Assembly (NCBI RefSeq): GCF_003334815.1 | Contig: NZ_QOWO01000013.1 | Length of the DNA: 64,000 nucleotides | From: Escherichia coli | Lineage (GTDB): Bacteria; Pseudomonadota; Gammaproteobacteria; Enterobacterales; Enterobacteriaceae | Reading direction: 5' to 3' (one strand) | The notes under the pieces: generated by a model | The model's input: the letters and a program-made list of their open reading frames with translations, nothing else | Told to the model about the DNA's origin: nothing | The model's database searches: none | Shown here: piece after piece, positions 907 through 64,000 of the stretch | Position numbering within the stretch: the first letter of the stretch is position 1 | Layout: every line of letters begins with the position of its first letter | Made by a program: the position numbers and the translations under genes

Positions 907-2112
907 ATGTTTCATCTCGATACTTTAGCAACGCTTGTTGCCGCAACGCTGACGTTGCTGCTCGGGCGTAAGTTGGTCCATTCCGTCTCCTTTTTGAAGA
1001 AATACACCATACCGGAACCTGTTGCGGGTGGTTTGTTGGTGGCGCTGGCGCTACTAGTACTGAAAAAAAGCATGGGCTGGGAAGTCAACTTTGATATGTC
1101 CCTGCGCGATCCGTTAATGCTGGCTTTCTTCGCCACCATTGGCCTGAACGCCAACATTGCCAGTTTGCGTGCCGGTGGGCGTGTGGTTGGCATCTTCTTG
1201 ATTGTGGTTGTTGGTCTGTTGGTGATGCAAAATGCCATTGGCATTGGTATGGCTAGCTTGTTAGGGCTTGATCCGCTGATGGGGCTGTTGGCCGGTTCTA
1301 TTACGCTTTCCGGCGGTCACGGTACGGGCGCTGCGTGGAGTAAATTGTTCATTGAACGTTATGGCTTCACCAATGCGACGGAAGTGGCGATGGCCTGTGC
1401 AACGTTCGGTCTGGTGCTGGGCGGCTTGATTGGCGGTCCGGTGGCGCGCTATCTGGTGAAACACTCCACCACGCCGAACGGTATTCCGGATGACCAGGAA
1501 GTCCCGACGGCGTTTGAAAAGCCGGATGTGGGACGCATGATCACCTCGTTGGTGCTGATTGAAACTATCGCGCTGATTGCTATCTGCCTGACGGTGGGGA
1601 AAATTGTTGCGCAACTTTTGGCTGGCACTGCTTTTGAACTGCCGACCTTCGTCTGTGTACTGTTTGTTGGCGTGATTCTGAGCAACGGTCTGTCAATAAT
1701 GGGCTTTTACCGCGTCTTTGAGCGTGCGGTATCCGTGCTGGGTAACGTAAGCTTGTCGTTGTTCCTGGCGATGGCGTTGATGGGGCTGAAACTGTGGGAG
1801 CTGGCTTCGCTGGCGCTGCCGATGCTGGCGATTCTGGTGGTACAGACCATCTTCATGGCGTTGTATGCCATCTTCGTTACCTGGCGCATGATGGGCAAAA
1901 ACTACGATGCGGCAGTGCTGGCTGCGGGTCACTGTGGTTTTGGCCTCGGTGCAACGCCAACGGCAATCGCCAACATGCAGGCGATCACTGAACGCTTTGG
2001 CCCGTCGCACATGGCGTTTTTGGTGGTGCCGATGGTCGGTGCGTTCTTTATCGATATCGTCAATGCGCTGGTAATTAAGTTGTATTTGATGTTGCCGATT
2101 TTTGCCGGTTAA
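907..2112 (+). CDS. gltS: sodium/glutamate symporter GltS
   Basis: ORF track 401 aa, ATG start; hydrophobic transporter sequence recognised as GltS. Confidence 0.93.
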   Translation: MFHLDTLATLVAATLTLLLGRKLVHSVSFLKKYTIPEPVAGGLLVALALLVLKKSMGWEVNFDMSLRDPLMLAFFATIGLNANIASLRAGGRVVGIFLIVVVGLLVMQNAIGIGMASLLGLDPLMGLLAGSITLSGGHGTGAAWSKLFIERYGFTNATEVAMACATFGLVLGGLIGGPVARYLVKHSTTPNGIPDDQEVPTAFEKPDVGRMITSLVLIETIALIAICLTVGKIVAQLLAGTAFELPTFVCVLFVGVILSNGLSIMGFYRVFERAVSVLGNVSLSLFLAMALMGLKLWELASLALPMLAILVVQTIFMALYAIFVTWRMMGKNYDAAVLAAGHCGFGLGATPTAIANMQAITERFGPSHMAFLVVPMVGAFFIDIVNALVIKLYLMLPIFAG

Positions 2113-2280
2113 CCGATGAAGCGGCGGTAGAAGTGCCGCCGCAACAAAGACAAATGCCTGATACGCTTCGCTTATCAAGCCTGCGTATTGATTCATAATT
2201 TATTGAATTTGTAGGGTGATGAATCGCATCCGGCAGGAAGGTAGGGTAACCTGAAATGGCGGTCTTCTCACTGCCGCCTT

Positions 2281-4362
2281 TTACGCATTCGAGTAACGTT
2301 CCGTCTCCGGCATCCAGCGTTCTATCAGGGCTTTTGCCTGTTGTGGGTAACGTTCGTGAATATGGCGTGCCAGGCGCTGAACTTCCGGGATCATCGCCTG
2401 ATCGCGCAGTAAATCCGCCACTTTAAATTCAGCATTACCCGTCTGACGCGTGCCTAACAATTCGCCAGGGCCGCGAATCTCCAGATCTTTTTGCGCAATC
2501 ACAAAACCGTCGTTACTGTCGCGCAGCACTTGCAGGCGAATTTGCGCCGTTTTAGAAAGCGGCGTTTTGTAGAGCAGCACGCAGTGAGAAGCCACCGCGC
2601 CACGACCTACGCGCCCGCGCAGCTGGTGTAACTGCGCCAGACCCAGACGCTCCGGGTTTTCGATAATCATCAGACTGGCGTTAGGCACATCAACGCCGAC
2701 TTCAATAACGGTTGTGGCAACCAGCAGGTGTAGCTCACCTTGTTTAAACGACGCCATCACCGCCTGTTTCTCGGCAGGTTTCATCCGCCCGTGTACCAGG
2801 CCAACGTTCAACTCTGGTAGCGCCAGTTTCAACTCTTCCCAGGTAGCTTCCGCCGCCTGCGCTTCCAGCAATTCCGACTCTTCAATCAACGTACAAACCC
2901 AGTATGCCTGACGACCTTCAGTTATGCAGGCGTGGTGCACGCGGTCAATGATGTCGGTACGGCGGGTATCAGGAATAGCGACCGTAGTCACTGGCGTGCG
3001 GCCTGGCGGCAGCTCATCTATCACCGAGGTATCGAGATCGGCATACGCAGTCATTGCCAGCGTGCGGGGGATCGGCGTGGCGGTCATGATCAACTGATGC
3101 GGATGGAAGCCCTGCTGCTGGCCTTTCTCCCACAATGCCAGACGCTGATGCACGCCAAAACGATGCTGTTCGTCGATAATCACCAGCGCCAGGCCGTTAA
3201 ACTGCACCTGTTCCTGGAAGATGGCGTGTGTACCGACAATCATCTGCACCTGACCGCTGGCGATGGCTTCCTGCTGTGCCAGCCGTGCTTTACCTTTCTG
3301 CTTACCGGCGAGCCAGCCCACTTCGATACCGAGCGGTGCAAACCAGTTGCGGAAGTTATTGGCGTGCTGCTCGGCGAGTAATTCGGTTGGTGCCATCAAT
3401 GCTACCTGTTTGCCGTGGGCAATCGCACGCAACGCGGCGAGGGCGGCGACCAGCGTTTTACCGGAACCTACATCGCCCTGCACCAGACGCATCATCGGCA
3501 CATCCAGCGCCATATCGCGCTCGATCTCCGCCACTACGCGTGCCTGTGCGCCCGTTGGCTTGAACGGTAAGGCGGCGAGGAGTTTATTTTTCAGCGTGTC
3601 ATTGGCGCTCAGCGGCTGGGCATGAAAACGCTGTGCTCCGGCACGTAAGGCTAACATGCTGAGGTTGTGCGCCAGCAGTTCTTCCAGAATCAGACGACGT
3701 TGCGCCGGATGCTGCCCGGTTTCCAGATCGCTAAGCTGTAGCGTCGGTGGCGGGCGGTGCAAAGTGCGCAACGCTTCCGGTAGCGTCATCATTCCTTGTG
3801 ACAGTTCCGGCGGCAGGAGTTCTTCAATGGCGCAGGTGTCGAGCAGATCCAGCGCCTGGTCGGTTAATTTACGCAGCGTGGCCTGCTTTACGCCTTCCGT
3901 TGTTGGATAAACCGGCGTGAGCGTTTCCTGTAATTCTGGCGTGCTGAGATCGCCCTGCACGCGGTATTCCGGGTGGATCATCTCCGCACCATATTTACCG
4001 CGCTTTGCTTCGCCATAAGCCAGTACACGGCGGCCCGCCGCCAGGCTATTTTTCATTGCCGCGCTGAAATTGAAAAAGCGCATGGTGAGGATGCCGGAAC
4101 CGTCGCTGATCTGGCAGGTCATCATCCGCCGACCGCCGAAGGAGATATTGCAGTTCAGCACTTCGCCTTCCACCGTGGCATAAACGCCCGGCAGTAGTTC
4201 TCCGATGGGGTAGAGATGGGTGCGATCTTCGTAGCGCAGGGGAAGGTGTAAGAGTAGATCCTGCACGGTATGCAGGTTGATTTTCGCCAGTTTGTTACTA
4301 AGTGCTGCGCCAACGCCCGTTAGGGAACTGAGTGGGACAGCATCTAACAGGCGACCTTTCAT
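2281..4362 (-). CDS. recG: ATP-dependent DNA helicase RecG
   Basis: ORF track 2281..4395; conserved N-terminus MKGRLLDAVPL begins at internal ATG 4362 (693 aa); Walker A GSGKT and DEQHRFG helicase motifs present. Confidence 0.93.
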   Translation of the reverse strand: MKGRLLDAVPLSSLTGVGAALSNKLAKINLHTVQDLLLHLPLRYEDRTHLYPIGELLPGVYATVEGEVLNCNISFGGRRMMTCQISDGSGILTMRFFNFSAAMKNSLAAGRRVLAYGEAKRGKYGAEMIHPEYRVQGDLSTPELQETLTPVYPTTEGVKQATLRKLTDQALDLLDTCAIEELLPPELSQGMMTLPEALRTLHRPPPTLQLSDLETGQHPAQRRLILEELLAHNLSMLALRAGAQRFHAQPLSANDTLKNKLLAALPFKPTGAQARVVAEIERDMALDVPMMRLVQGDVGSGKTLVAALAALRAIAHGKQVALMAPTELLAEQHANNFRNWFAPLGIEVGWLAGKQKGKARLAQQEAIASGQVQMIVGTHAIFQEQVQFNGLALVIIDEQHRFGVHQRLALWEKGQQQGFHPHQLIMTATPIPRTLAMTAYADLDTSVIDELPPGRTPVTTVAIPDTRRTDIIDRVHHACITEGRQAYWVCTLIEESELLEAQAAEATWEELKLALPELNVGLVHGRMKPAEKQAVMASFKQGELHLLVATTVIEVGVDVPNASLMIIENPERLGLAQLHQLRGRVGRGAVASHCVLLYKTPLSKTAQIRLQVLRDSNDGFVIAQKDLEIRGPGELLGTRQTGNAEFKVADLLRDQAMIPEVQRLARHIHERYPQQAKALIERWMPETERYSNA

Positions 4363-4367
4363 GGCAC

Positions 4368-5057
4368 TTACCCTGCAGCCTGCATAGTAGCCCACCAGTC
4401 GGCATCAGCTTCGATCTCGCCTTGCTGATTGACGTGGGGATAAGGCAGGCCTTTGCGTTTTGCGACTTTCGCCAGCACCGGATAGCCGCCTTCAAACAAC
4501 AGGCGTTGTTGCTCTGCTTCCGGCAACATGCTGTTTTCACGCAGGTACATGCCTGCATTTTGCCGCTGACGCTGGGCTTCGTAAAGAATGAGGGCTGAGG
4601 CAACGGAAACATTCAGCGACTGCACCATGCCGATCATCGGAATGATGATGTCCTGATCCGCCAGGGCCAATGCTTCCTGCGTGATGCCCGTTTTCTCCTG
4701 TCCCATCAAAATGCAGGTCGGGCGAGTGTAATCAATTTCGCGGAAATCGACAGCGTTATCAGAAAGATGGGTTGCCAGAATCTGCATGCCCTGGCCTTTG
4801 AGATGAGCGACGGCATCGCCAATGGTGCGGTGTGTTTTCACCTGTACCCAGCTGTTACTACCCGCCGCTGCCGAAGCCATGGTGCGCATGCGGCTACCAG
4901 GCCAGACGGCGTGAACTTCATGTACGCCAACGGCATCTGCGGTACGAATAATCGCAGAAACGTTATGAGGTTTGTGGACCTGCTCCATGCAGACGGTCAG
5001 ATCAGGCTGCCGCCTGGCGAGCATTTCGCAGATGCGTGCATAACGTGTTGGGTTCAT
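4368..5057 (-). CDS. trmH: tRNA (Gm18) 2'-O-methyltransferase TrmH (SpoU)
   Basis: ORF track 229 aa; SPOUT methyltransferase; sits between spoT and recG. Confidence 0.9.
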   Translation of the reverse strand: MNPTRYARICEMLARRQPDLTVCMEQVHKPHNVSAIIRTADAVGVHEVHAVWPGSRMRTMASAAAGSNSWVQVKTHRTIGDAVAHLKGQGMQILATHLSDNAVDFREIDYTRPTCILMGQEKTGITQEALALADQDIIIPMIGMVQSLNVSVASALILYEAQRQRQNAGMYLRENSMLPEAEQQRLLFEGGYPVLAKVAKRKGLPYPHVNQQGEIEADADWWATMQAAG

Positions 5058-5063
5058 AAAACA

Positions 5064-7172
5064 TTAATTTCGGTTTCGGGTGACTTTAATCACGTCTGGC
5101 ATCACGCGGATTTTGCGCATGATATTCGCCAGATGCACACGGTCACGAGCGGTCAGACGAATAAAGGCGCTGTAGACGCGACCATCTTTCTCTTCCGTAT
5201 TCAAACTTTGAATATTCGAAGTCGTGGTGTTAATTGCCGCCGTCAGGTTTGCCAGCGCACCCTGATGATTGAACATCTCCACCTTGATTTCGGTGATGAA
5301 CTCCTGCGCCGTCTCTTTATCCCATTCCACAGCCATAAACTTCTCTGGCTCTTTCTGGTAGCCACGGATATTACGGCAGGATTCATGGTGGATCACCAGA
5401 CCTTTACCGGGGCTGACGTGGGCGATAATCGGGTCGCCAGGAATAGGGCGGCAGCATTTCGCAAAGGTGATCAGCACGCCATCGGCACCTTTAATGGGCA
5501 GATGTCCGTGGCTTTGGGTTGCCGGTGGAATGGAGGCGTCCCCATGTTGCAGATTTTTCGCGACCACCACGCTCATTGCGTTACCAAGTCCGATTTCTGC
5601 CAGCAGATCGTCAAGCGTTGCCAGCTTCATGCGATCCAGCTCGCGCTGAATATTTTCCTGCGGGATTTCATTCAGCTTACGGCTACCACCCAAAGCATGG
5701 TTGAGCAGACGACGGCCCAGGCTTACAGAATCATCACGCTTGAGGTTTTTCAGCAACTGACGAATTTTGGCGCGCGCTTTCGAGCTAACGACAAAGTTCA
5801 GCCAAGCGGCATTCGGGCGAGCGCCCGGAGCGGTAATGATTTCAACGGTTTGACCGCTGGTAAGCGGCTGCGACAGCGGGTAAGGCTGGCGGTCAACGCG
5901 TGCGCCCACGCAGGCATGACCGATATCGGTATGCACTGCATAAGCGAAGTCGACGGGCGTTGCACCGGCAGGCAGCTCGACAATGCGCCCTTCCGGTGTG
6001 AAAACGTAAATCTCATCCGGGAAGAGATCGGATTTAACGCTCTCGATAAATTCAAACGAACTACCGGCGCTCTGTTGCAGCTCCAGCAGGCTTTGCATCC
6101 AGCGCTGGGCGCGGATTTGTGCGGTAGTACTGGTTTCGCCGTGCTCTTTATAAGCCCAGTGCGCGGCAACACCCATCTCCGCCATCTGGTCCATATCTTC
6201 GGTACGGATCTGGACCTCAACCGGCACACCGTGCGGGCCGATCATCGAGGTGTGCAAAGACTGATAGCCGTTCGCTTTTGGAATGGCGATATAGTCTTTC
6301 ACGCGGCCCGGACGCGGCTTGTACAGGCTGTGCATCTGGCCCAGCACGCGATAACAGGTGTCAGAATCATTGACGATCACGCGGAAAGCGTAGATGTCCA
6401 TGATCGAGTGAAAACGCTGCTCTTTGAGCACCATTTTGCAGTAAATCGAATAAAGATGCTTCTCGCGACCACTGACGCGGCACGGTATTCCCGCTTCCTG
6501 CAAACGCCCTTCGATTTCAGAAAGAATCTTCTGGATCATCTCTTTACGGTTGCCGCGCGCGGCTTTCACCACTTCTTTGATTACGCGATAACGGTTGGGA
6601 TACAGCGCCTCAAAACCCAGCTCTTCGAGTTCGGTTTTAATGTGGTGGATACCTAAACGGTGCGCCAGCGGGCTATAAATTTCGAGAGTTTCACGGGCGA
6701 TGCGGCGACGTTTGTCCGGGCGAAGTGAGCCCAGCGTGCGCATGTTGTGGGTACGGTCGGCAAGTTTGATGAGGATGACGCGGATATCCTGCACCATCGC
6801 CATAATCATCTTGCGAAAGTTTTCGGCCTGCGCCTCTTTCTTATCGCGGAACTTGAGTTTATCAAGTTTCGACACCCCCTCTACCAGCTCGGCGACGCTT
6901 TTACCAAAAAGCTGTTCCATATCCTGGTAGGTGGCGGGAGTATCTTCAATCACGTCATGCAGCAGCGCCGCCATCAGCGTTTCATAGTCGAGTTTCATCT
7001 CGGCCAGAATGCAGGCAACCGCTACCGGGTGCGTGATATAGGGTTCACCGCTTGAACGTGTTTGCCCCTCGTGAGCATCACGTGCAACGAGATACGCCTG
7101 CCGCAGACGCTTGATTTGGTCTTCCGGCAGGTAGGTTTGAATCAGTTGATTCAGGCTTTCAAACAGATACAA
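5064..7172 (-). CDS. spoT: bifunctional (p)ppGpp synthetase/hydrolase SpoT
   Basis: ORF track 702 aa; HD hydrolase motif (HDVIEDT) plus RelA/SpoT synthetase region; directly downstream of rpoZ. Confidence 0.95.
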   Translation of the reverse strand: MYLFESLNQLIQTYLPEDQIKRLRQAYLVARDAHEGQTRSSGEPYITHPVAVACILAEMKLDYETLMAALLHDVIEDTPATYQDMEQLFGKSVAELVEGVSKLDKLKFRDKKEAQAENFRKMIMAMVQDIRVILIKLADRTHNMRTLGSLRPDKRRRIARETLEIYSPLAHRLGIHHIKTELEELGFEALYPNRYRVIKEVVKAARGNRKEMIQKILSEIEGRLQEAGIPCRVSGREKHLYSIYCKMVLKEQRFHSIMDIYAFRVIVNDSDTCYRVLGQMHSLYKPRPGRVKDYIAIPKANGYQSLHTSMIGPHGVPVEVQIRTEDMDQMAEMGVAAHWAYKEHGETSTTAQIRAQRWMQSLLELQQSAGSSFEFIESVKSDLFPDEIYVFTPEGRIVELPAGATPVDFAYAVHTDIGHACVGARVDRQPYPLSQPLTSGQTVEIITAPGARPNAAWLNFVVSSKARAKIRQLLKNLKRDDSVSLGRRLLNHALGGSRKLNEIPQENIQRELDRMKLATLDDLLAEIGLGNAMSVVVAKNLQHGDASIPPATQSHGHLPIKGADGVLITFAKCCRPIPGDPIIAHVSPGKGLVIHHESCRNIRGYQKEPEKFMAVEWDKETAQEFITEIKVEMFNHQGALANLTAAINTTTSNIQSLNTEEKDGRVYSAFIRLTARDRVHLANIMRKIRVMPDVIKVTRNRN

Positions 7173-7520: not shown

Positions 7521-10698
<3,178 letters not shown>

Positions 10699-10988
10699 GG
10701 TTCTCTCCCTAAAAATCTGTCTGGCAGGGTAGCGATTTGTGCGCATTGTCACGATTGAGATTTTTTAAGGGGAGGGGAAATTGATAACTTGTAGTTATGT
10801 GAAATCGCTATTTTCTGTAGCAGAGATGCATTCTTCTGACTTCTTGTCTGAGAAAATGCATAAGAAAAAATAGGTTAAAACTGAGGGGGGAAAAGAAAGG
10901 TGCAATATTTAGCCATTGTGTTCACTGCACCTGGACCTTGGCTTACGCATCGGGTGTCTCAATCAACAAAAAGAGTTTTTAGTTTCTG

Positions 10989-11813
10989 CTATTTCTTCTC
11001 TGTAATTTTTACACTGTTTTCCAACTGCTTGATGCTGACCTGCGGGGTCGGCAACTCCTCAGGCATGGTTCCGCCAAGTTCCTGAATGGTTTGCCTCACC
11101 TTGCGACCCACGTCAAAGTGTGTGGTGTTTGCTTGCTGTTTTGAATTCACGCCATCCCGCTTGAGTTTTTCTTCTGTTTGGGTAGCTCGAAAGAGATTAG
11201 CCGCCAGTTCTGTTGAACCCATATGATCCAGGATCTTCTGATTCTTTTTCAGCCCCTTCCGCTGATGAATAGCTTTCTGATCTAATCCACCATACAGCCC
11301 CTGGTAACCATGATTCTGAAATATGGCGAAATCAGTAGCTGTCGCTACCCCAGCTTGCTGTGCTGCCTCAACCAATTGTTTGTTATGTTCTTTCAACTCA
11401 TTTCTCAGAAACAGACGCTTTTCGTCTTCACGAAGTTGCTTAAATGCTTCATCGTCAGCAAGCTCCTGCCGTCGGGTCTGGATAGCAAAATAAGTCTGCC
11501 CTGCCGCAATGACCGGTTTCGCAGGGTCGCCGTTTTGTACTACCAGGTAACAGGCATAGCGGGAGAGTACGATGTCTTTTAATGCTCTTTTGGCATTTGA
11601 GCCAATTTTGACCATATCGAGGATCTCCTCGAAATGGTCATCAATTGTGTGACCACTGTTCTCACAGGCTTCTTTGGCGCGCGTTAATACAGGTATAAAG
11701 TGACGATACTCTGAATAACCCAGTAGTTTCCCAAGTTGTCTTGCTGACCATTGTTCTGCTCCGTTTGCATTAATCAGTTTTATCTCTTCAAAAGGTTGAT
11801 GATGTTCGTTCAT
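10989..11813 (-). CDS. dinD: DNA damage-inducible protein DinD
   Basis: ORF track 10989..11825; start MNEHHQPFEEI at ATG 11813 (274 aa); LexA box about 45 bp upstream. Confidence 0.82.
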   Translation of the reverse strand: MNEHHQPFEEIKLINANGAEQWSARQLGKLLGYSEYRHFIPVLTRAKEACENSGHTIDDHFEEILDMVKIGSNAKRALKDIVLSRYACYLVVQNGDPAKPVIAAGQTYFAIQTRRQELADDEAFKQLREDEKRLFLRNELKEHNKQLVEAAQQAGVATATDFAIFQNHGYQGLYGGLDQKAIHQRKGLKKNQKILDHMGSTELAANLFRATQTEEKLKRDGVNSKQQANTTHFDVGRKVRQTIQELGGTMPEELPTPQVSIKQLENSVKITEKK

Positions 11814-11856
11814 TGCCCACTCCATGTGATATCAATTGCAAAGAAAGTAAATCTGT

Positions 11857-11876
11857 AACTGTATTTATATACAGTT
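11857..11876 (-). promoter_or_regulatory. LexA (SOS) box upstream of dinD
   Basis: aaCTGTatttatatACAGtt fits the CTGT-N8-ACAG SOS-box consensus. Confidence 0.65.
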
Positions 11877-12033
11877 GTGAGTATCTCACGTTCTCAGTGT
11901 GCTGGGCAAAAAAACATCGCAAAATCTGGAGCAGGCACGCAAAACAGAATTGAATGTTGCGGGGAAGAAAAATGCCGCTCTGTTTGAGTGGCGGCATTTG
12001 TGAAGGCGGAAAAGTAAGAATTGGCGTTACGAG

Positions 12034-55378: not shown

Positions 55379-57292
55379 TTACTTACGACCTGCCAGCAGT
55401 TCCAGCACTTCATCCACGCTGGTGGTGTGTGCCAGACGCTCGATGACGGACTCATCATCCAGTGCATTGGTCAGGCTGGTGATAACCTGAATGTGCTCGT
55501 TGTTACGGGCAGCAATACCAATCACCAGACGGGCAATGTCATCTTCTTCTTCACCGAAGCGCACGCCTTCCGGGTACTGGCAGAACACGACGCCCGTTTT
55601 CAGTACGCGATCTTTCGCTTCAACCGTACCGTGTGGCACCGCGATAGACTCACCCAGATAAGTCGGGGTCAGTTTTTCACGATCCAGCATCGCCTGAACG
55701 TATTCCGGCTCAACGTAACCGCCTTTCACCAGCTGCTCGCCAGCAAAACGAATCGCTTCTTCTTTGGTTGCCGCTTTGCGACCGAGGAAGATGTTCTCCG
55801 CGCCTAGCTTGAACAGGTTAGCACTGGAATCGTCAAAGCTGTCTTTCAGGCTGTCTTTTACTTTCTCTTCGTTTGCCGTGTGGCGTTGGGCAGCAACCAG
55901 ACGTTCGGTCAGGCTGGTGTACAGGCCGCTGTCGAGGAAGTTGGTCAGCGAAATATGCTGTGCCTGCGGAACCTGGCGCATAGCGCGTTCGGTCAGGTCA
56001 CGGTGAGTGATGACGAGGTCCACATCTGGCGGCAGGTTGTTGATCGCGCTGTTAGTAACAGAAATCTGCGACAGACCTGCATCCTGAATTTTCTTACGCA
56101 GAACGCCTGCGCCCATCGCACTGGAACCCATACCGGCGTCACAGGCAACGATGATTTTACGTACGTGGCTCAGGTCGTTAGTCACATCGCCAGCAGACAG
56201 CGGAGATGCGCCTTTAGACTCAGCTTTCATGTCCTGCATACGACGAGTTGCTGCTTCAATATCATCTTCTTCTTTCACTTTGCTGGTTTTCAGCAAAATA
56301 GCAGAGACAACGAAGGAGACAGCCATCGCCGCACACACACCCGCGATGTTAGCGAAGTAAGCACCTTTTGGTGTCATCGCCAGTACAGCAAGGATAGAAC
56401 CCGGAGATGCCGGAGAAACCAGACCACCGCCCAGGATAGTCAGCGTGAACACGCCAGTCATACCGCCGAGGATGACTGCGAGGATCAGACGCGGATTCAT
56501 CAGCACATACGGGAAGTAGATTTCGTGGATACCCCCCAGGAAGTGGATGATTGCCGCACCGCCCGCAGACTGTTTAGCGCTACCACGACCAAAGAACATG
56601 TACGCCAGCAGCACGCCCATACCTGGACCTGGGTTAGCTTCAATCAGGAAGAAGATTGATTTACCCAGTTCATGGGACTGCTGAATACCCAGCGGCGAGA
56701 AGATACCGTGGTTAATGGCGTTGTTGAGGAACAGGATTTTCGCCGGTTCAACAAAGATAGACGCCAGCGGCAGCATGTCATGGACAACCATGAAGTTAAC
56801 GCCCGCAGCCAGCATTTTGGACAGGGCTTCAACAATCGGGCCAATGCCGAGGAATGCCAGAATAGCGAGGATCATCCCGATGATGCCTGCGGAGAAGTTA
56901 TTCACCAGCATCTCAAAACCGGATTTGATCTTACCGTCTACCCAGCGGTCGAAGTGCTTAATGCACCAGCCGCCCAGCGGACCTGCAATCATAGAACCGA
57001 GGAACATCGGCATGTCTGCGCCGACGATAACGCCCATGGTGGTGATGGCACCGACTACGCCGCCACGTTCGCCGCCTACCAGCTTACCACCGGTATAACC
57101 GATCAGCAGCGGCAGGAGATAAGTGATCATCGGCCCGACCAGCTTCGCCAGCGTCTCGTTCGGTAACCACCCTGTTGGAATAAATAACGCGGTGATGATA
57201 CCCCACGCGATAAACGCGCCGATATTTGGCATCACCATGTTGCTGAGGAAACGACCAAAGCTTTGCACTTTGATCTTAATATCGGATGACAT
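55379..57292 (-). CDS. mtlA: PTS mannitol-specific EIICBA
   Basis: ORF track 637 aa [27 protein letters not shown]... Confidence 0.95.
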
Positions 57293-57435
57293 AAAAACAC
57301 CCCTTCTTATGTTTGCTGTCGCGCAGGCTGGAAGCCCGAGGTTTTTTGTTAATGTGGCGGCAGAGGTAGCCGGACCTTGTAGATACTGCGAAATCTGGCA
57401 CTGAATCGGTTAACTGTCCAGTCGACGGCCTTTTG

Positions 57436-57612
57436 TGTGATATCAATCACATAAATATAGGGGGTAGAGAGGTAATTGACGTGACGTTCATCACAAAACG
57501 CTTGTGTAAAAAAGCAACAAGGCGGCGATTTTCGCTAAAAATGGCATTTAAATGTGAGTAGTGTCACATTTTTGTTTTGATGGTTTGTTGAATCTTTGTG
57601 ATCTGAATCACA
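57436..57612. promoter_or_regulatory. mtl operon control region with four CRP-type sites
   Basis: TGTGA-N6-TCACA at 57436-57451, 57553-57568 and 57597-57612 (perfect half-sites) and cGTGA-N6-TCACA at 57480-57495; 144-320 bp upstream of mtlA start. Confidence 0.65.
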
Positions 57613-57828
57613 AGATATTTTCTTACGGCGTTCACCTGATGTGATCTACAGCATGTTATGCCTTCGTCATACAATCGTTATGTAACTAAGCAACTCATCA
57701 CCTCTAAAAATTATTCTTTGGTGTTATGGCGAGAATCGCGAACCCGGATTATTGTCAAAATATCAGCCTGACTCCCTTCTGGCTGCCAGCCCAAAAACAA
57801 CACTGATAAACGTGAATCCGAGGCAGAT

Positions 57829-58191
57829 ATGTTTCTAAACTATTTCGCGTTGGGAGTGCTGATCTTCGTCTTTCTGGTGATTTTTTATGGAATCATCGCG
57901 ATACATGACATCCCTTATCTGATTGCCAAAAAGCGCAACCATCCCCATGCCGACGCTATTCATACGGCGGGCTGGGTGAGCCTGTTTACTCTGCATGTTA
58001 TCTGGCCGTTTCTGTGGATCTGGGCGACGCTCTATCAACCGGAGCGTGGCTGGGGTATGCAGTCACATGTTGCGTCGCAGGAGAAAGCGACTGACCCGGA
58101 AATCGCCGCACTTTCTGACCGAATTTCCCGGCTGGAGCATCAACTCGCCGCCGAGAAAAAGACTGACTATTCCACGTTCCCGGAGATCTAA
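57829..58191 (+). CDS. yibI: small inner-membrane protein YibI
   Basis: ORF track 120 aa; two hydrophobic segments then a charged C-terminal tail. Confidence 0.82.
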
Positions 58192-58193
58192 TT

Positions 58194-59330
58194 ATGGATC
58201 TATTGATTGTTTTAACTTACGTGGCGCTGGCGTGGGCGGTCTTTAAAATCTTCCGCATTCCGGTAAATCAGTGGACGCTGGCGACGGCGGCGCTGGGAGG
58301 CGTGTTTCTGGTGAGTGGTTTGATTTTGTTGATGAACTACAACCACCCTTACACTTTTACCGCGCAAAAGGCAGTGATAGCGATCCCTATCACGCCACAG
58401 GTGACGGGAATTGTTACTGAAGTCACTGACAAGAATAATCAGCTTATTCAAAAGGGCGAGGTGCTTTTTAAGCTCGACCCGGTTCGTTACCAGGCGCGAG
58501 TTGACAGACTTCAGGCTGACCTGATGACGGCGACGCATAATATAAAGACGCTGCGTGCGCAGCTCACTGAAGCGCAGGCCAACACCACCCAGGTTTCAGC
58601 GGAGCGCGACCGTCTGTTTAAAAATTATCAACGTTACTTGAAAGGCAGCCAGGCGGCGGTGAATCCGTTCTCGGAACGTGACATCGACGATGCGCGGCAA
58701 AATTTCCTCGCGCAGGATGCGCTGGTGAAAGGCTCGGTGGCGGAGCAGGCGCAGATCCAGAGCCAGCTCGACAGTATGGTTAACGGCGAGCAATCGCAGA
58801 TTGTGAGCTTAAGAGCGCAACTTACTGAAGCAAAATATAACCTTGAGCAGACTGTCATTCGCGCGCCGAGCAATGGCTACGTTACTCAGGTACTGATCCG
58901 CCCAGGTACATACGCAGCTGCCTTGCCGCTGCGTCCGGTGATGGTCTTCATCCCCGAGCAAAAACGGCAAATTGTCGCCCAATTTCGGCAAAACTCGCTG
59001 TTACGTCTGAAACCCGGCGATGATGCGGAAGTGGTGTTTAACGCGCTACCTGGGCAGGTGTTTCACGGCAAACTGACTAGTATTTTACCTGTCGTGCCAG
59101 GCGGTTCTTATCAGGCGCAGGGGGTATTGCAATCATTAACGGTCGTGCCCGGCACGGACGGTGTGCTGGGAACCATTGAACTGGACCCTAACGATGATAT
59201 CGATGCCTTACCCGACGGCATCTACGCCCAGGTGGCGGTTTACTCCGACCATTTCAGCCATGTTTCGGTGATGCGGAAAGTGCTGCTAAGAATGACCAGC
59301 TGGATGCATTATCTTTATTTGGATCATTGA
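58194..59330 (+). CDS. yibH: HlyD-family membrane fusion protein YibH
   Basis: ORF track 378 aa; N-terminal TM, long coiled coil, beta-rich C-terminus; 2 nt after yibI. Confidence 0.85.
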
Positions 59331-59892
59331 GGGGGAGGGGGGAGATTATGGAACTTTGCTCCTTGTAAGGACTAATTATTTTTGCATATTACTTCATTAG
59401 CTGCGATGATTTTTCTTTAATATTCATTATGTTAATAAGTTCTGGATGAGTGTGCTCTCATTGGATTTTTTATCCGTCTTGTTCTGCCGCAGGATGAGAC
59501 TATACATCGTCGAGATCGCAATGATGATATGAGTTGTTCCTCCTGCGACGGCTCTAATCAAAAAAGAGCAGGAGTGCTTTTCCATCTATTGCGATGATGG
59601 CTTTATTATCTGAAGGATGACAGTCACATTTAAAAAATATTTAATCTATAGATCACAATGTAGGGTCATGGAATATATGTATACAACTATTTTCTTCTTC
59701 ACTTTTAATTATCGTATTCATTATAAAACTAAGTTAAAAAAACTCCTGGAGAGTGAGTTATTAATATATTTTTAAATAAAATTAAGTTATCATTCATCGA
59801 TGCACTTTATAGAATCATCAATGGCCATAATAGTACTATTAACTCTCAATTTTATATTTTTATCATCACTACAAATATTAACTGAATTTATA

Positions 59893-60228
59893 TCAATGAT
59901 TTTTTTTATTCTTATCTTTTATTTTATTTACTGTTTCAATGCAATCAGCGGCAAGTTGGAGTGGATTTAGATTTTTCAGATATGGTCTTATGATCTTTCC
60001 CTTACTTAATAAATAGCATGTATAGGATTCGGAAAGTCCAGCATCTATTTTGTACCTCATTATATTAGATAAGGATGTGAGAAATTCCTTGTTATCATTC
60101 GCAGCCATATATGCCAGTCCGAGTTCAGCCTCTGCGGCCTTACAGGCAAAATAGCTTAGTGAACACGCTTTTCGTCCCTCTTTAGTACTGGCTGATATTA
60201 GTGCCCATAATATTGCTTTGTCTGCCAA
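59893..60228 (-). CDS. hypothetical 111-aa ORF at the distal end of the rhs accessory array (possible orphan immunity gene)
   Basis: ORF track only; track start is a TTG and the first ATG is internal; AT-rich; no recognisable motif. Confidence 0.35.
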   Translation of the reverse strand: MADKAILWALISASTKEGRKACSLSYFACKAAEAELGLAYMAANDNKEFLTSLSNIMRYKIDAGLSESYTCYLLSKGKIIRPYLKNLNPLQLAADCIETVNKIKDKNKKNH

Positions 60229-60316
60229 ATCTAACTCTCTCTGAAATTGTCTTGCAGTAACTGCACTCGCAGAAATAGAGAAAAAAATACAATTGTTAAT
60301 AACCTTGCCATATTTT

Positions 60317-60610
60317 TTAGTCCGTAACTGTTAATGTGCTATCTGGCTCTGAAAATATTAACTCATTTAATTTTTGCATGTCATTAGATAAACCAGTTAT
60401 ACAACCCTCGGAACAGAATCGAGGTCCTAAAGACGGACCAAAAGCGTTTAAACAACTATGTATTGAAAATCCATTGCGATTATAAGTTCCTGTATTAACT
60501 GACGGTACTAATCGTATGCCGTCAGGTTTTCTATTGCTTGCTCCCGGGTCATTAACATTCCAACTCCATAGGCCTTGAGGTATTGGCCATCTATTTATAA
60601 ATGTGTACAA
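60317..60610 (-). pseudogene. probable remnant of an orphan Rhs C-terminal toxin tip
   Basis: ORF track 97 aa starting at TTG; lies directly downstream of the degenerate rhs core-end fragment but in a different frame. Confidence 0.35.
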
Positions 60611-60744
60611 CGGGGATTATTTTTACATTGCATATTATTACCAGAAGCGACTGGAATACTAAGCACATCATAAAAATTATCATCACATGGTATATCTGAA
60701 ACACACGAAAGCATACCTAAAGTTATGCTGTATAAACAGGTGGC

Positions 60745-60925
60745 TAATCCCAAGGGGATCGATTCCAGAAATCGGGTTCAACGGATACTGATAAAAATTC
60801 CACCTACCTTCCAGCCCAATCGGAGCCTGAGTGTTATACCGCCCCTGCTGCGGTTAATGTTACCGATAATAGTTATAGTACAGCCCTGATTCATCATCAT
60901 ACTACTGCTGCGGCAGTCTGATGAA
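60745..60925 (-). pseudogene. degenerate Rhs core C-terminal fragment with in-frame stops
   Basis: Reverse translation gives [54 protein letters not shown], a decayed copy of the rhs core end ([20 protein letters not shown]...[24 protein letters not shown]). Confidence 0.6.
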
Positions 60926-60934
60926 CTATTGCTT

Positions 60935-61396
60935 TTACGGATTCTCCTTATTCTTCCTTCTATCCATTCGCTTTAGCTTTTTGAGCTCTTGAAGTTTGCT
61001 CTTTGCATCAATATTACCGTTATTTACAGCGAATTCCATCCAATAAATAGCTCTATTCAAATTATAATATTCTGATAATGTTGGATTTGTATCTGATAAA
61101 AAGACCCCATAATTAAACTGCGCTGTAACATTCCCCTGAGATGCTGATCTTTCCAAGAATCGCAATTGTTTGTAAATGTTATTTTTAGTAAAGCAGTAAT
61201 ATTGATATAGTCGAAATGATGCCTCTGAATCACCATGTTGTGATTTATACTTCAGTTTCATCAACTTTTCTTCACTTAAATCATAGGTCATTGCTGTAGA
61301 CCCCATCATACTTTCGTTTTGTTTTATTTTCACATCAGCACCATGCAATTGACAAATAAAAGAGAAATAAAAAAATAGTAACAAGCATGCTTTCAT
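60935..61396 (-). CDS. yibG: Sel1-repeat protein YibG with N-terminal signal-peptide-like segment (putative immunity protein for the yibJ toxin tip)
   Basis: ORF track 153 aa; 12 nt downstream of yibJ stop. Confidence 0.82.
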   Translation of the reverse strand: MKACLLLFFYFSFICQLHGADVKIKQNESMMGSTAMTYDLSEEKLMKLKYKSQHGDSEASFRLYQYYCFTKNNIYKQLRFLERSASQGNVTAQFNYGVFLSDTNPTLSEYYNLNRAIYWMEFAVNNGNIDAKSKLQELKKLKRMDRRKNKENP

Positions 61397-61407
61397 ACAT
61401 CTACAAC

Positions 61408-62352
61408 CTATCTTATATCACTGGGTTTTTCTGGCGTACCTTGCATATTAGAAATGGGGTGCCCAGATGGCCCATATGTTATCCAATTACCAAGGTCTTT
61501 TGTTGTTATAGCCATTAGATCCTTATTTGAATTAAGGTTCGTTGGTGCTGTTAGCACTGTATCCATTTTTAACTTACCATTAGTTCCTCGCCCCCACCAC
61601 GTCCATAGCGTGTCAGGTCCTATTACATTTGTATGTAACTCTTTAGCTAATTGGCTAGCAAATGAATTTTGTCCTTTACCTGTATTACAAGAAAATAACC
61701 AAACTGTCATCCCATCTTTATAATTCCCATCAAATTTAATTAGATATGCTAGATCTTTAGCTGTCATGATACTGCGCGTTGCGGATTCAATAGATGTGGG
61801 GGTACCATGCCCCCCGATTGTGAAAACGCCTGGGATATTAATCTCATCAGCTACAGAATGGATAAGATCACTTTCGGGGTATAAATTTATATCAACCAAA
61901 CCTTGCGGATCTACATTTATGACCGGATTCAACGGATACTGATAAAAATTCCATCCCCCCTTCAGTCCAATCGGATCCTGAGTGATATACCGCCCCAGCA
62001 GCGGGTCATAATAGCGGTGGCGGTTGTAATACAGGCCGGACTCCTCATCATACTGCTGACCCGGCAGGCGAATGAGCTGCTGCAGATGATGCGGGTTCTC
62101 ATCACTCAGCAGGTTGCCCCATTCATCATATTCTGCGCACCACGCTGTTGCCCCTTCCGTGCTGATGAGCGCCAGCGGCAGGCCGCGATGGTCGCAGTGG
62201 TACAGGTGGATTTTTCGCGCCGGCGTGTACACCGGGTCCATCTGGTTTTGCATCTGCTCCACCGTCAGGCCGCACGATGCCAGCCAGCGGCGGCTTTCCT
62301 CACTCACCCGGTCAGCCAGGATTTCACTTTCCAGCCGGTCGAGCATCTGCAC
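61408..62352 (-). CDS. yibJ: orphan Rhs C-terminal module YibJ: rhs core 3' fragment fused to an alternative C-terminal tip
   Basis: ORF track 314 aa (GTG 62352 or ATG 62346); first ~150 aa nearly identical to the rhsA core end, diverging after DPQGL. Confidence 0.8.
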
Positions 62353-62388
62353 CGTGCCGGCGGGAATCCCCCACTGTGCATAGGCAAC
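61921..62388 (-). repeat. direct repeat of the rhsA core 3' end (second copy at 63678-64000 and beyond)
   Basis: long near-identical stretches, e.g. TTTTTCGCGCCGGCGTGTACACCGGGTCCATCTGGTT at 62211-62247 and 63964-64000. Confidence 0.85.
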
Positions 62389-62393
62389 TCACG

Positions 62394-63236
62394 CTATGAA
62401 CGCTTCAGCTTATCAATAGCGGAAGTTATAATTTCATTGTCATCAAACTTGTACAACATAGTATCTAAAACAGGAAGTAGCGTTTTATCACCTAATTCAC
62501 CCGCAGCTTCAATGATATCATCATAAACAGTATTTTTTTTTAACTCATCGCATAAAACAGATAAAACCCTTTTATCTTTTCTGTAGGAAAGTCCGATTAT
62601 TGCTTCAATACGGACTTCCTCATTTTTATCCTGAAGCATCTCCACAAAACAATCCCTAATATCACTATTATCATATTTATTGATATTTATTGCAAATGCG
62701 GCCCAGTTTCTGACATCTCCATTTGGATCTTTTAACAGATTAATCAATAGTGGAATTGTTGCTTTATCATTGATAACAGAAATAGCAAATGCTGTAGCAC
62801 GTCTGACATTAGTCGATTTATCAAAAGCAGTAATTTGAGATTGTTCTACTATTTTAGGTGAATAAATTGGGTTTTTCTTGCATCGCTGAGCCGTTGACTC
62901 GATTGCCGTAGCTCGAACGCAAGCGCTCTTATCATTCAATGCCATATTGTTCAAAATATTAAAAACATTATCTTCGCATTTTTTGCAAATTTTTATTTGC
63001 CCGAGTATAAATGCTCCGATATCTCTACGGATATAATTTTTATCAGAGCAGAACTCAATTGCCAATCTAACAGCGTCTTGCCCACCTCTTAACTGTAATA
63101 CTCTGGCAGATGAAATCCTTTTCAAGGAATTGTGATCATCAAGTAAGCGAAATAATTCATCATCATTTAGTTTCTTACATTGATTATATAAACCATACTC
63201 TTTACTTGCCTTTCTTTTCTGGTATGTATTTGACAT
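62394..63236 (-). CDS. yibA: HEAT-repeat protein YibA (RhsA-associated immunity protein)
   Basis: ORF track 62394..63251 (GTG); ATG 63236 preceded by GGAGG gives 280 aa; 20 nt downstream of rhsA stop. Confidence 0.82.
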   Translation of the reverse strand: MSNTYQKRKASKEYGLYNQCKKLNDDELFRLLDDHNSLKRISSARVLQLRGGQDAVRLAIEFCSDKNYIRRDIGAFILGQIKICKKCEDNVFNILNNMALNDKSACVRATAIESTAQRCKKNPIYSPKIVEQSQITAFDKSTNVRRATAFAISVINDKATIPLLINLLKDPNGDVRNWAAFAININKYDNSDIRDCFVEMLQDKNEEVRIEAIIGLSYRKDKRVLSVLCDELKKNTVYDDIIEAAGELGDKTLLPVLDTMLYKFDDNEIITSAIDKLKRS

Positions 63237-63256
63237 TGCAGGAACCTCCACAAGGG

Positions 63257-64000
63257 CTATCTTTTTTTATCGTTTGACTGTCTGGAGTGACGACAATTCC
63301 AGGCTTTCTGTGTGCTTTTTGCATCTTTAGCACTAATATCACCACAATCAATTAGTTCCTGAAGTACGTCACATCTGTCGGGTTTTTTCCCATCACTCCA
63401 GAATCTGTCATTTATTATGTCATTGACACGATCAGTTATCCCTGTGTCTGCAACATTTCCACGAGAAGCTATCATTGTTATATCTAATGCTAGTCCCGGA
63501 TTATTCAATATTAGAGAGTCAAATATTCTTTGTGATGCTGTATCGTTCCACCATTTTGTCAATGCTTTTGCAGCATTATCATCTGCTTGCTGCTGTGCAG
63601 GGCTTTTGGGCCATGGAATTGGCAAGGGGAATGGTCTAGGAAAAACTTCTAACCCCAGAGGATCTGTATTCGTAACTGGATTCAACGGATACTGATAAAA
63701 ATTCCATCCCCCCTTCAGCCCAATCGGATCCTGAGTGATATACCGCCCCTGCAGCGGGTCATAATAGCGGTGGCGGTTGTAATACAGGCCGGACTCCTCA
63801 TCATACTGCTGCCCCGGCAGGCGGATAAGCTGCTGCAGCTGATGCGGGTTCTCTTCATTCAGCAGGTTGCCCCATTCATCGTATTCTGCGCACCATTCTG
63901 TTGTCCCTTCCTTGCTGATAAGGGCCAGCGGCAGGCCGCGATGGTCGCAGTGGTACAGGTGGATTTTTCGCGCCGGCGTGTACACCGGGTCCATCTGGTT
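63257..64000 (-). CDS. rhsA: RhsA, 3' end only (core C-terminus, DPLGL junction and C-terminal tip); gene continues beyond window end
   Basis: Open reverse-strand frame from the window end to TAG at 63257-63259; ...[44 protein letters not shown]... Confidence 0.88.

Follow-up and report, generated by a model that had tools for sequence, protein, structure and literature searches.

Within a 64-kb stretch of K-12-like Escherichia coli DNA (contig NZ_QOWO01000013.1, the whole of which is called the window here), the adjacent genes yibI and yibH encode a small membrane protein of the DUF3302 family and a periplasmic adaptor, or membrane fusion protein (MFP). We propose that the two genes represent, in E. 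coli, a DUF3302-adaptor module that is conserved and self-contained, in which the inner-membrane base would be made of the pair's own helices and the adaptor would lead into a TolC-dependent conduit, and we give this reading a probability of roughly 45%. It is favoured because the pair is conserved with no canonical pump in every locus examined, including compact three-gene operons that contain an outer-membrane factor (OMF). The original prediction, made from the letters of the window, held that the partner pump, if any, must be encoded elsewhere. Its observation that no pump is linked to the pair stands, while the necessity is weakened, as the pair is pumpless in every locus examined; an unlinked pump is weighed below as a rival. 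The two genes and their translation signals are:

57829 to 58191, plus strand: yibI coding sequence, stop codon included; 120 amino acids, DUF3302 small inner-membrane protein (open reading frame list, Pfam, RefSeq)
58194 to 59330, plus strand: yibH coding sequence, stop codon included; 378 amino acids, EmrA/AaeA-like periplasmic adaptor (MFP)
57820 to 57823, plus strand: Shine-Dalgarno-like GAGG, 5 nucleotides (nt) 5' of the yibI ATG and kept in relatives
58182 to 58185, plus strand: Shine-Dalgarno-like GGAG for yibH, within the 3' end of yibI

The list of open reading frames and the sequence agree on two adjacent genes at 57829-59330, with the adaptor gene following that of the two-helix protein after a gap of 2 nt (the junction reads TAA-TT-ATG). 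RefSeq annotates yibI as a DUF3302 domain-containing protein and yibH as a HlyD family secretion protein, in agreement with the same list. As the GGAG of yibH lies inside the 3' end of yibI, the two genes are predicted to be translationally coupled. A 3.1-kb query (57200-60300), on which mtlA, yibI and yibH are annotated, is matched by 5409 of the 5426 complete E. coli genomes, and dN/dS against Escherichia and Citrobacter orthologues is 0.02-0.04 for the two genes (0.035-0.039 for yibI). Both are thus near-universal core genes of E. coli and under strong purifying selection.

Residues 3-78 of YibI match the Pfam family DUF3302 (PF11742, E=3.3e-41, model positions 1-76 of 77), and NCBIfam holds no family match for the protein. 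Hydropathy and AlphaFold agree that YibI is a small two-helix membrane protein, as had been predicted, with membrane helices at about residues 2-26 and 41-68 linked by a basic, His-rich loop; the helices of the AlphaFold2 (AF2) model comprise residues 2-26, 28-35 and 41-68. The positive-inside rule would place the loop in the cytoplasm and both ends in the periplasm. The tail is poorly conserved and has a heptad-like helix at residues 90-112. The DUF3302 family counts 819 clusters at 50% identity (E<=0.001) and reaches beyond Proteobacteria, with named members from Reichenbachiella (Bacteroidota) and Nitratifractor (Campylobacterota).

The assignment of YibH to the adaptors is confirmed by Pfam (PF00529, PF16576 and PF13533, a lipoyl-like domain included), by NCBIfam and by fold matches. 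The protein passes the NCBIfam model RND_mfp (TIGR01730; 99.9 bits against a cut-off of 94.9) and stays below the equivalog cut-offs of the EmrA/EmrK, MdtN and AaeA models. MdtN (111 bits) and AaeA (75 bits) are among its best scores, and on the EmrA equivalog NF011715 and on TIGR00998 it reaches 57 bits (cut-off 563) and 113 bits (cut-off 391), respectively. The nearest PDB sequence is E. coli EmrA (E=1.7e-11), and EmrA in EmrAB-TolC is also the top fold match (8zal_A, E=3.5e-19, TM(target) 0.66; for 8zal and 8zar together, E about 1e-19 and TM(target) about 0.65); the Foldseek matches also include MacA and AcrA. AF2 was run, from a paired alignment, on YibI and YibH fused through a linker, and the YibH part of the model has lipoyl and beta-barrel domains, a hairpin and a C-terminal helix, and lacks a membrane-proximal domain. 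The hairpin (56 + 58 residues) is predicted with a local confidence score (pLDDT) of 80-95, and its tip is the presumed docking end for the outer-membrane factor. The predicted anchor consists of two consecutive N-terminal hydrophobic helices by hydropathy and AF2, where the norm of the MFP family is a single transmembrane helix or a lipid anchor. The parts of the two proteins map to the window as follows:

57835 to 58062, plus strand: DUF3302 core of YibI (residues 3-78), with helix 1, the His/Asp-rich loop and the Trp-rich helix 2 (Pfam range and alignments)
58194 to 58355, plus strand: N-terminal membrane hairpin of YibH with the NYNHPY motif; helices at residues ~1-20 and 28-50, or 1-24 and 27-50 if the hydrophobic segments are taken in full (hydropathy; AF2 residues 149-169 and 178-200 of the fused model)
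58482 to 58847, plus strand: alpha-helical hairpin of YibH, residues 97-152 and 161-218, tip loop QAAVNPFS (AF2 residues 247-302 and 311-368 of the fused model)
59256 to 59315, plus strand: C-terminal amphipathic helix of YibH, kept across the clade (AF2 residues 505-524 of the fused model)

The two-helix N-terminus (consensus MDLLIxLTYxxxxWxxFKxFKIPVNKWT), the NYNHPY motif at the periplasmic end of its second helix and the C-terminal amphipathic helix (consensus HVxxxRKxLLRMxSWxxYxF) are common to all YibH-type adaptors, from E. coli to Bacteroidota-like loci. Conservation was measured by region as the mean identity to the E. coli residue, and the alignments give the DUF3302 core as the most conserved part of the pair:

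YibI helix 2: 0.87
YibI loop: 0.80
YibH NYNHPY motif: 0.80
YibH membrane helices and C-terminal helix: 0.53-0.62
YibH lipoyl and barrel domains: 0.41-0.45
YibH hairpin: 0.23, the least conserved region of YibH
YibI tail: 0.23

Because the identities are highest there, the strongest selection acts on the membrane-embedded and juxtamembrane parts of YibI and YibH.

The same two-gene unit was followed through about 170 loci (72 from species genomes, 15 from look-ups of divergent members and 80 metagenomic), which are a sample and not a census. Across 84 genome contexts, a YibH homologue comes after the DUF3302 gene, with exceptions at locus ends only. In a further, mostly metagenomic set (L074-L168 in our numbering), the homologue is the next gene in 74 of the 75 cases where at least 400 nt of sequence lie downstream of the DUF3302 gene, and the gaps between the two genes cluster at -8 to +3 nt. 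The one exception, L113 (6740-7468), has DUF3302 fused in frame to the C-terminal amphipathic helix of the adaptor (...RRILLRMRSWQNYIFMEGH), the entire periplasmic adaptor part being absent; a natural mini-fusion or deletion would explain this, as would an artefact of assembly.

Outside Enterobacterales, one recurrent third gene accompanies the pair, and it encodes a TolC-family OMF. OMF genes with PF02321 abut the pair in L076, L083, L084/85, L086 and L088, and relatives found by BLAST do so in L091, L097, L103, L104, L109, L111 and L136. Of 96 clusters at 90% identity, 12 have the OMF gene in one tight operon with the pair (8 of 28 at 70%), in the order OMF-DUF3302-adaptor or DUF3302-adaptor-OMF. 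In L088 the DUF3302, adaptor and OMF genes are 1-2 nt apart and bounded on both sides by genes on the opposite strand. No OMF gene adjoins yibI-yibH in the E. coli window.

No RND, ABC, efflux/DHA-type MFS or FUSC gene adjoins the pair in the window, in island-free E. coli (strains without the rhsA island, discussed below), in the 84 genome contexts or in 92 further loci, and no EmrB-like neighbour was found in the loci examined. The annotated neighbours are a NosR/RnfG-like protein, glutamate dehydrogenase, RadD, SulP, an MFS protein of the anion:cation-symporter type, DUF3300, CitMHS, HupE/UreJ and others. A family-agnostic screen gave a same-strand polytopic neighbour in 11 of the 92 loci, from at least eight unrelated families. 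Apart from the OMF, the only candidates for a recurrent third gene are a K+/H+-antiporter-like gene, in one clade, and yibF, in Enterobacterales only; the other neighbours are heterogeneous.

In the rival that stays closest to the original prediction, YibH is an ordinary adaptor, YibI an AaeX-like accessory subunit and the true inner-membrane pump is encoded elsewhere in the genome. The candidates would include an MFS or ABC exporter, as well as YccS and YhfK of E. coli, which we take to be orphan FUSC-type proteins. This explanation is a serious alternative, though we hold it less probable than the self-contained module. The EmrA-like fold of YibH speaks for it, as does the fact that its nearest models (EmrA/EmrK, MdtN and AaeA) have MFS or FUSC partners, and the antiporter-like gene in the operon of one clade demonstrates that a polytopic partner is possible. 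Characterised adaptors all pair with a transporter, as in EmrAB-TolC (PMC13139468), and in a transporter knockout library the yibH deletion was hypersensitive to ornidazole, alongside mdtN, acrB and tolQR mutants (PMC9405208). Against it, no canonical pump adjoins the pair in any of the loci, even in the OMF operons bounded by opposite-strand genes, and a trans-encoded partner would need to stay unlinked in every lineage. In addition, the strongest conservation is found in the pair's own membrane segments, and neither the family of YibI nor the arrangement of one informative locus agrees with an AaeX-type system.

The resemblance to aaeX-aaeA-type efflux modules noticed in the original prediction is sound for architecture and gene order: in AaeXAB and MdtNOP, as here, the gene of a small two-helix protein lies directly 5' of the adaptor gene, and AaeA and MdtN are among the best NCBIfam matches of YibH. 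It does not extend to homology. In hhalign comparisons, the DUF3302 profile matched a DUF1656 (AaeX-family) protein with a probability of 0.45% and a FUSC pump with a probability below 1%, and no homology of DUF3302 to AaeX/DUF1656 or to FUSC was found. The known systems, with a small DUF1656 protein and/or an adaptor, also have a FUSC-type pump, whereas no FUSC gene is linked to the DUF3302 pair in the loci examined. Locus L086 carries both systems, a FUSC-OEP-DUF1656-AaeA-like cluster (957-5851) and, 2 kb away, a DUF3302-adaptor-OEP-antiporter-like cluster (8001-11933). The two architectures are therefore distinct, because FUSC is present only in the DUF1656 cluster and the DUF3302 cluster has none; the AaeA-like adaptor of this locus has one N-terminal helix, YibH two. 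The order DUF3302-adaptor-OEP-antiporter was also observed in L103 and L136.

Among characterised systems, EmrAB-TolC is the closest to YibH, and both EmrA and YibH are devoid of a membrane-proximal domain. EmrA has a single transmembrane helix and, as a hexamer, surrounds the 14-helix EmrB monomer in EmrAB-TolC (PMC13139468). YibH differs in its two N-terminal hydrophobic helices and its differently conserved C-terminal helix, and no EmrB-like gene lies nearby. Small envelope proteins are also known from other TolC-dependent assemblies, namely AcrZ (on AcrB) and the lipoprotein YbjP (on TolC), and the PDB entries 9v53, 9tg4 and 9qgy, TolC-dependent assemblies of this kind, are among the fold matches of YibH. 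However, AcrZ and YbjP bind the transporter or TolC and their genes are not beside that of the adaptor, whereas YibI is strictly co-encoded and more conserved than the adaptor.

E. coli has a second such pair, YiaW-YiaV, with about 75% identity to YibI-YibH and a 5-nt gap between the genes. It lies at another locus, likewise with no linked pump, between aldB on its upstream side and, past its downstream end, yiaU on the other strand, and the tail of YiaW is shorter (107 against 120 amino acids in YibI). YiaV is TCDB 8.A.1.1.4 and has been described as an uncharacterised MFP (PMC10971958), and the yiaWV row of a table of genomic SELEX (systematic evolution of ligands by exponential enrichment) results for RpoD is marked 'HNS' (PMC3946193). 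The two pairs define two conserved contexts in Enterobacterales, mtlA / yibI yibH yibF selAB and aldB yiaW yiaV / yiaU. In Citrobacter, only about 8.6 kb separate the yibIH-type pair from the yiaWV-type pair; both are on one strand, with yibF-selAB-yiaY-aldB between them (for example 9001-10502 and 17657-18360 in L007; likewise in L008, L010, L012, L024 and L026). This suggests that a local duplication gave rise to the yibIH and yiaWV paralogues.

In the self-contained module that we propose, YibH, whose alpha-hairpin is long (about 2 x 56 residues), would form an EmrA-like periplasmic funnel, by homology with hexameric EmrA. The funnel would dock on an outer-membrane factor, which may be TolC or another trans-encoded factor in E. 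coli and the cognate factor of the same operon in other phyla. The inner-membrane base would consist of the two N-terminal helices and the C-terminal amphipathic helix of YibH together with two-helix YibI subunits, with no canonical transporter. The functional core may lie in the invariant His/Asp-rich cytoplasmic loop and the Trp-rich helix 2 of YibI, which would serve as a gate or bind protons, cations or substrate. If the stoichiometry follows that of EmrA, six YibH and six YibI would bring together 24 membrane helices in the place that EmrB takes within EmrAB-TolC. In favour of the module are the constant pairing of the two genes, the OMF operons of relatives, the lack of a linked pump, the high conservation of the membrane parts, the two N-terminal helices and kept C-terminal helix of the adaptors, the EmrA-like fold, the purifying selection with near-universal presence in E. 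coli and, as weaker hints, the ornidazole and urine phenotypes. More tentatively, and with odds that we regard as clearly below even, the pair, alone or joined by a cognate OMF, could represent a class of envelope-spanning system not described before, in which a ring of two-helix proteins and adaptor hairpins is the translocation or gating path, maybe proton- or cation-dependent by way of the invariant His/Asp loop, and both YibIH and YiaWV use TolC.

Several points weigh against this proposal. To our knowledge, all characterised adaptors work with a transporter, and we know of no way in which a two-helix protein could energise export. The interaction of YibI with YibH, the binding of TolC and transport are proposals of this work. 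In the fused AF2 model the adaptor part is confident, and the YibI part is moderate (pLDDT about 60-72, predicted TM score (pTM) 0.51). A membrane-only construct (YibI core, YibH N-terminal hairpin and C-terminal helix) reached a pLDDT of 62 and a pTM of 0.35, a confidence so low that no conclusion on the packing of YibI and YibH is drawn from it. Mutual-information covariation between the two proteins was likewise uninformative, with an effective number of sequences (Neff) of 34 and scattered top pairs. The RLS motif (RxxxLxxxxxxS) at the adaptor hairpin tip binds the tip of TolC (PMC3391258), and the tip of the YibH hairpin has no R, L or S at the canonical spacing; in short-hairpin relatives, the OMF-linked ones included, the spacing of Leu and Ser is kept in at least 70% of sequences and the Arg is not. 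The K+/H+-antiporter-like gene, which follows the OMF in one clade (L086, L103, L136) and is the sole recurrent polytopic neighbour, could encode a real, non-canonical pump partner. Finally, an attB integration site has taken the place of a deleted yibH, with no growth defect reported (PMC5852967).

That replacement, as a use of yibH for chromosomal integration in strain engineering, would also fit a second rival, in which the pair is a decaying or functionless remnant of a pump operon truncated by the rhsA island. The sequence after yibH bears on this directly:

59331, no strand: border where the core genome meets the rhsA-associated variable island (in genomes free of the island, megablast matches end at query base 2132, which is window position 59331)

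Directly after the yibH stop codon, where the island starts, the E. coli genomes cease to be homologous, in keeping with a truncation. The AT-rich DNA that follows had been described as a spacer; it is instead the distal end of an rhsA element (59331-64000), with a frameshifted Imm57 immunity gene, orphan Rhs C-terminal fragments, yibG (a Sel1 repeat protein), yibA (a HEAT repeat protein) and the 3' part of rhsA. The island is missing from about a third of E. coli genomes, which have yibF there instead; this gene, for a glutathione S-transferase, starts 70 base pairs (bp) after yibH and is followed by selA and selB. No pump gene has been lost to the island, because island-free strains have yibF and not a pump after yibH. 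The statement of the original prediction that no transporter gene follows yibH thus holds for the window and for island-free E. coli alike. The low dN/dS, the presence of the pair in 5409 of 5426 genomes and the retention of the two-gene DUF3302-adaptor unit across phyla also oppose the remnant, and dN/dS and synteny together effectively refute any remnant or pseudogene reading, which we regard as extremely improbable.

A third explanation is that the pair is not a transport system but a structural or stress module of the envelope, such as a periplasm-spanning tether or a membrane-organising complex, that uses the adaptor fold as a scaffold, with or without an OMF. The published phenotypes are relevant here. 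No paper characterising the function of yibI, yibH or DUF3302 was found in the literature search, and a 2024 survey still listed both genes as uncharacterised (PMC11551758). In strain UTI89, yibI was up 5.6-fold in urine, and its deletion gave a competitive index of 0.33 in urine and less adherence (PMC5404293). For the paralogue, the passage of PMC12844161 that cites the result has a yiaW deletion raising Ca2+-mediated transformation efficiency, and yiaW gained IS1 insertions during adaptation to macrophages, though the reconstructed mutants had no phenotype (PMC5495878). The weak phenotypes of yibI and yibH point to the envelope or to efflux. The reduced adherence and both yiaW observations would suit an envelope module, as would the absence of an energy-coupling component from the loci examined and the great heterogeneity of the neighbour genes. 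The recurrent operon linkage to TolC-family channel genes and the complete EmrA-like funnel architecture argue the other way, and the Leu and Ser spacing of the RLS motif in short-hairpin relatives points to docking on an exit duct, not to tethering. We judge an envelope module unlikely.

Other features of the neighbourhoods were also noted. In Serratia, Rahnella, Pantoea and Buttiauxella the DUF3302-adaptor pair is found in several unrelated contexts, with a transketolase, a MocR regulator, an aspartate:alanine antiporter two genes off and unknowns as neighbours. Neighbours often have a detoxification flavour, namely yibF in Enterobacterales (L001, 8202-8810) and a glyoxalase-family gene after the adaptor in two distant loci; the loci listed with such neighbours are L001 (8202-8810), L082 (3292-3801), the P0214 locus and L086 (10716-11933, the antiporter-like gene). 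This pattern is weak and may be coincidence. In two soil-metagenome loci, a DUF3300 gene (PF11737) lies directly 3' of the adaptor gene (L118, 6011-7307; L135, 8751-9818). A role of the pair in anti-phage defence was considered and rejected, as PADLOC gave no family and only coiled-coil noise.

Upstream, yibI is separated by a 536-bp spacer from the divergent gene mtlA. The features of this region are:

55379 to 57292, minus strand: mtlA, divergent neighbour of yibI
57436-51, 57480-95, 57553-68 and 57597-612, no strand: four CRP-consensus sites (pattern TGTGA-N6-TCACA, at most one mismatch)
57640 to 57655: weaker fifth CRP-like site, overlapping the promoter-like TCTACA-19-TACAAT
57645 to 57675, plus strand (yibI-sense): promoter-like TCTACA-19-TACAAT, 154 nt 5' of the ATG and the sole match in the window
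57764 to 57785, plus strand: inverted repeat CAGCC-N12-GGCTG in the presumed yibI 5' leader, about 45 nt 5' of the yibI start

All four matches to TGTGA-N6-TCACA with at most one mismatch in the 64-kb window lie in this spacer (57436-57612), and the site at 57597 is also present in Citrobacter and Klebsiella. By genomic SELEX the spacer was recovered in vitro with CRP (PMC3105977) and with RpoD holoenzyme, the TCTACA/TACAAT hexamers being listed in the latter study (PMC3946193). Its table prints TCTACA-19-TACAAT under mtlA, yet the strand is that of yibI, and the hexamers printed for yibIH are absent from the spacer. On sequence grounds, we consider TCTACA-19-TACAAT a promoter-like candidate for yibI; a scan for consensus promoters and terminators gave no convincing yibI promoter and no terminator after yibH. 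The claim that the pair shares a promoter region with the CRP-controlled mtl operon is accordingly upheld as far as the divergent spacer, its CRP sites and the in vitro binding of CRP and RNA polymerase are concerned, and CRP control of yibIH itself is putative.

The stem of the inverted repeat has five pairs, two of them with compensatory changes, and is weak (-4.6 kcal/mol, RNAalifold); among Enterobacteriaceae the changes are CAGTC/GACTG and CACCC/GGGTG. For the repeat, a hairpin in the leader and a site of protein binding are both conceivable. It is overlapped by a 26-codon upstream open reading frame (57726-57806), the peptide of which is not conserved. An Rfam scan of 57200-60300 detected no RNA element at E<=0.1.

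The genes are thus known yet uncharacterised, and their reading should shift away from that of an adaptor missing its pump. The "y-ome", the uncharacterised gene set of the best-studied bacterium, includes yibI, yibH, yiaW and yiaV. Should the pair prove to be a self-contained module, the rule of a canonical transporter behind every periplasmic adaptor would be called into question, and a minimal type of TolC-dependent system would be added whose range extends from Enterobacterales to Bacteroidota and Campylobacterota. Two new candidates would also be gained for TolC-dependent phenotypes not explained by known pumps. If a trans-encoded pump exists instead, the pair would be a handle for de-orphaning that pump.

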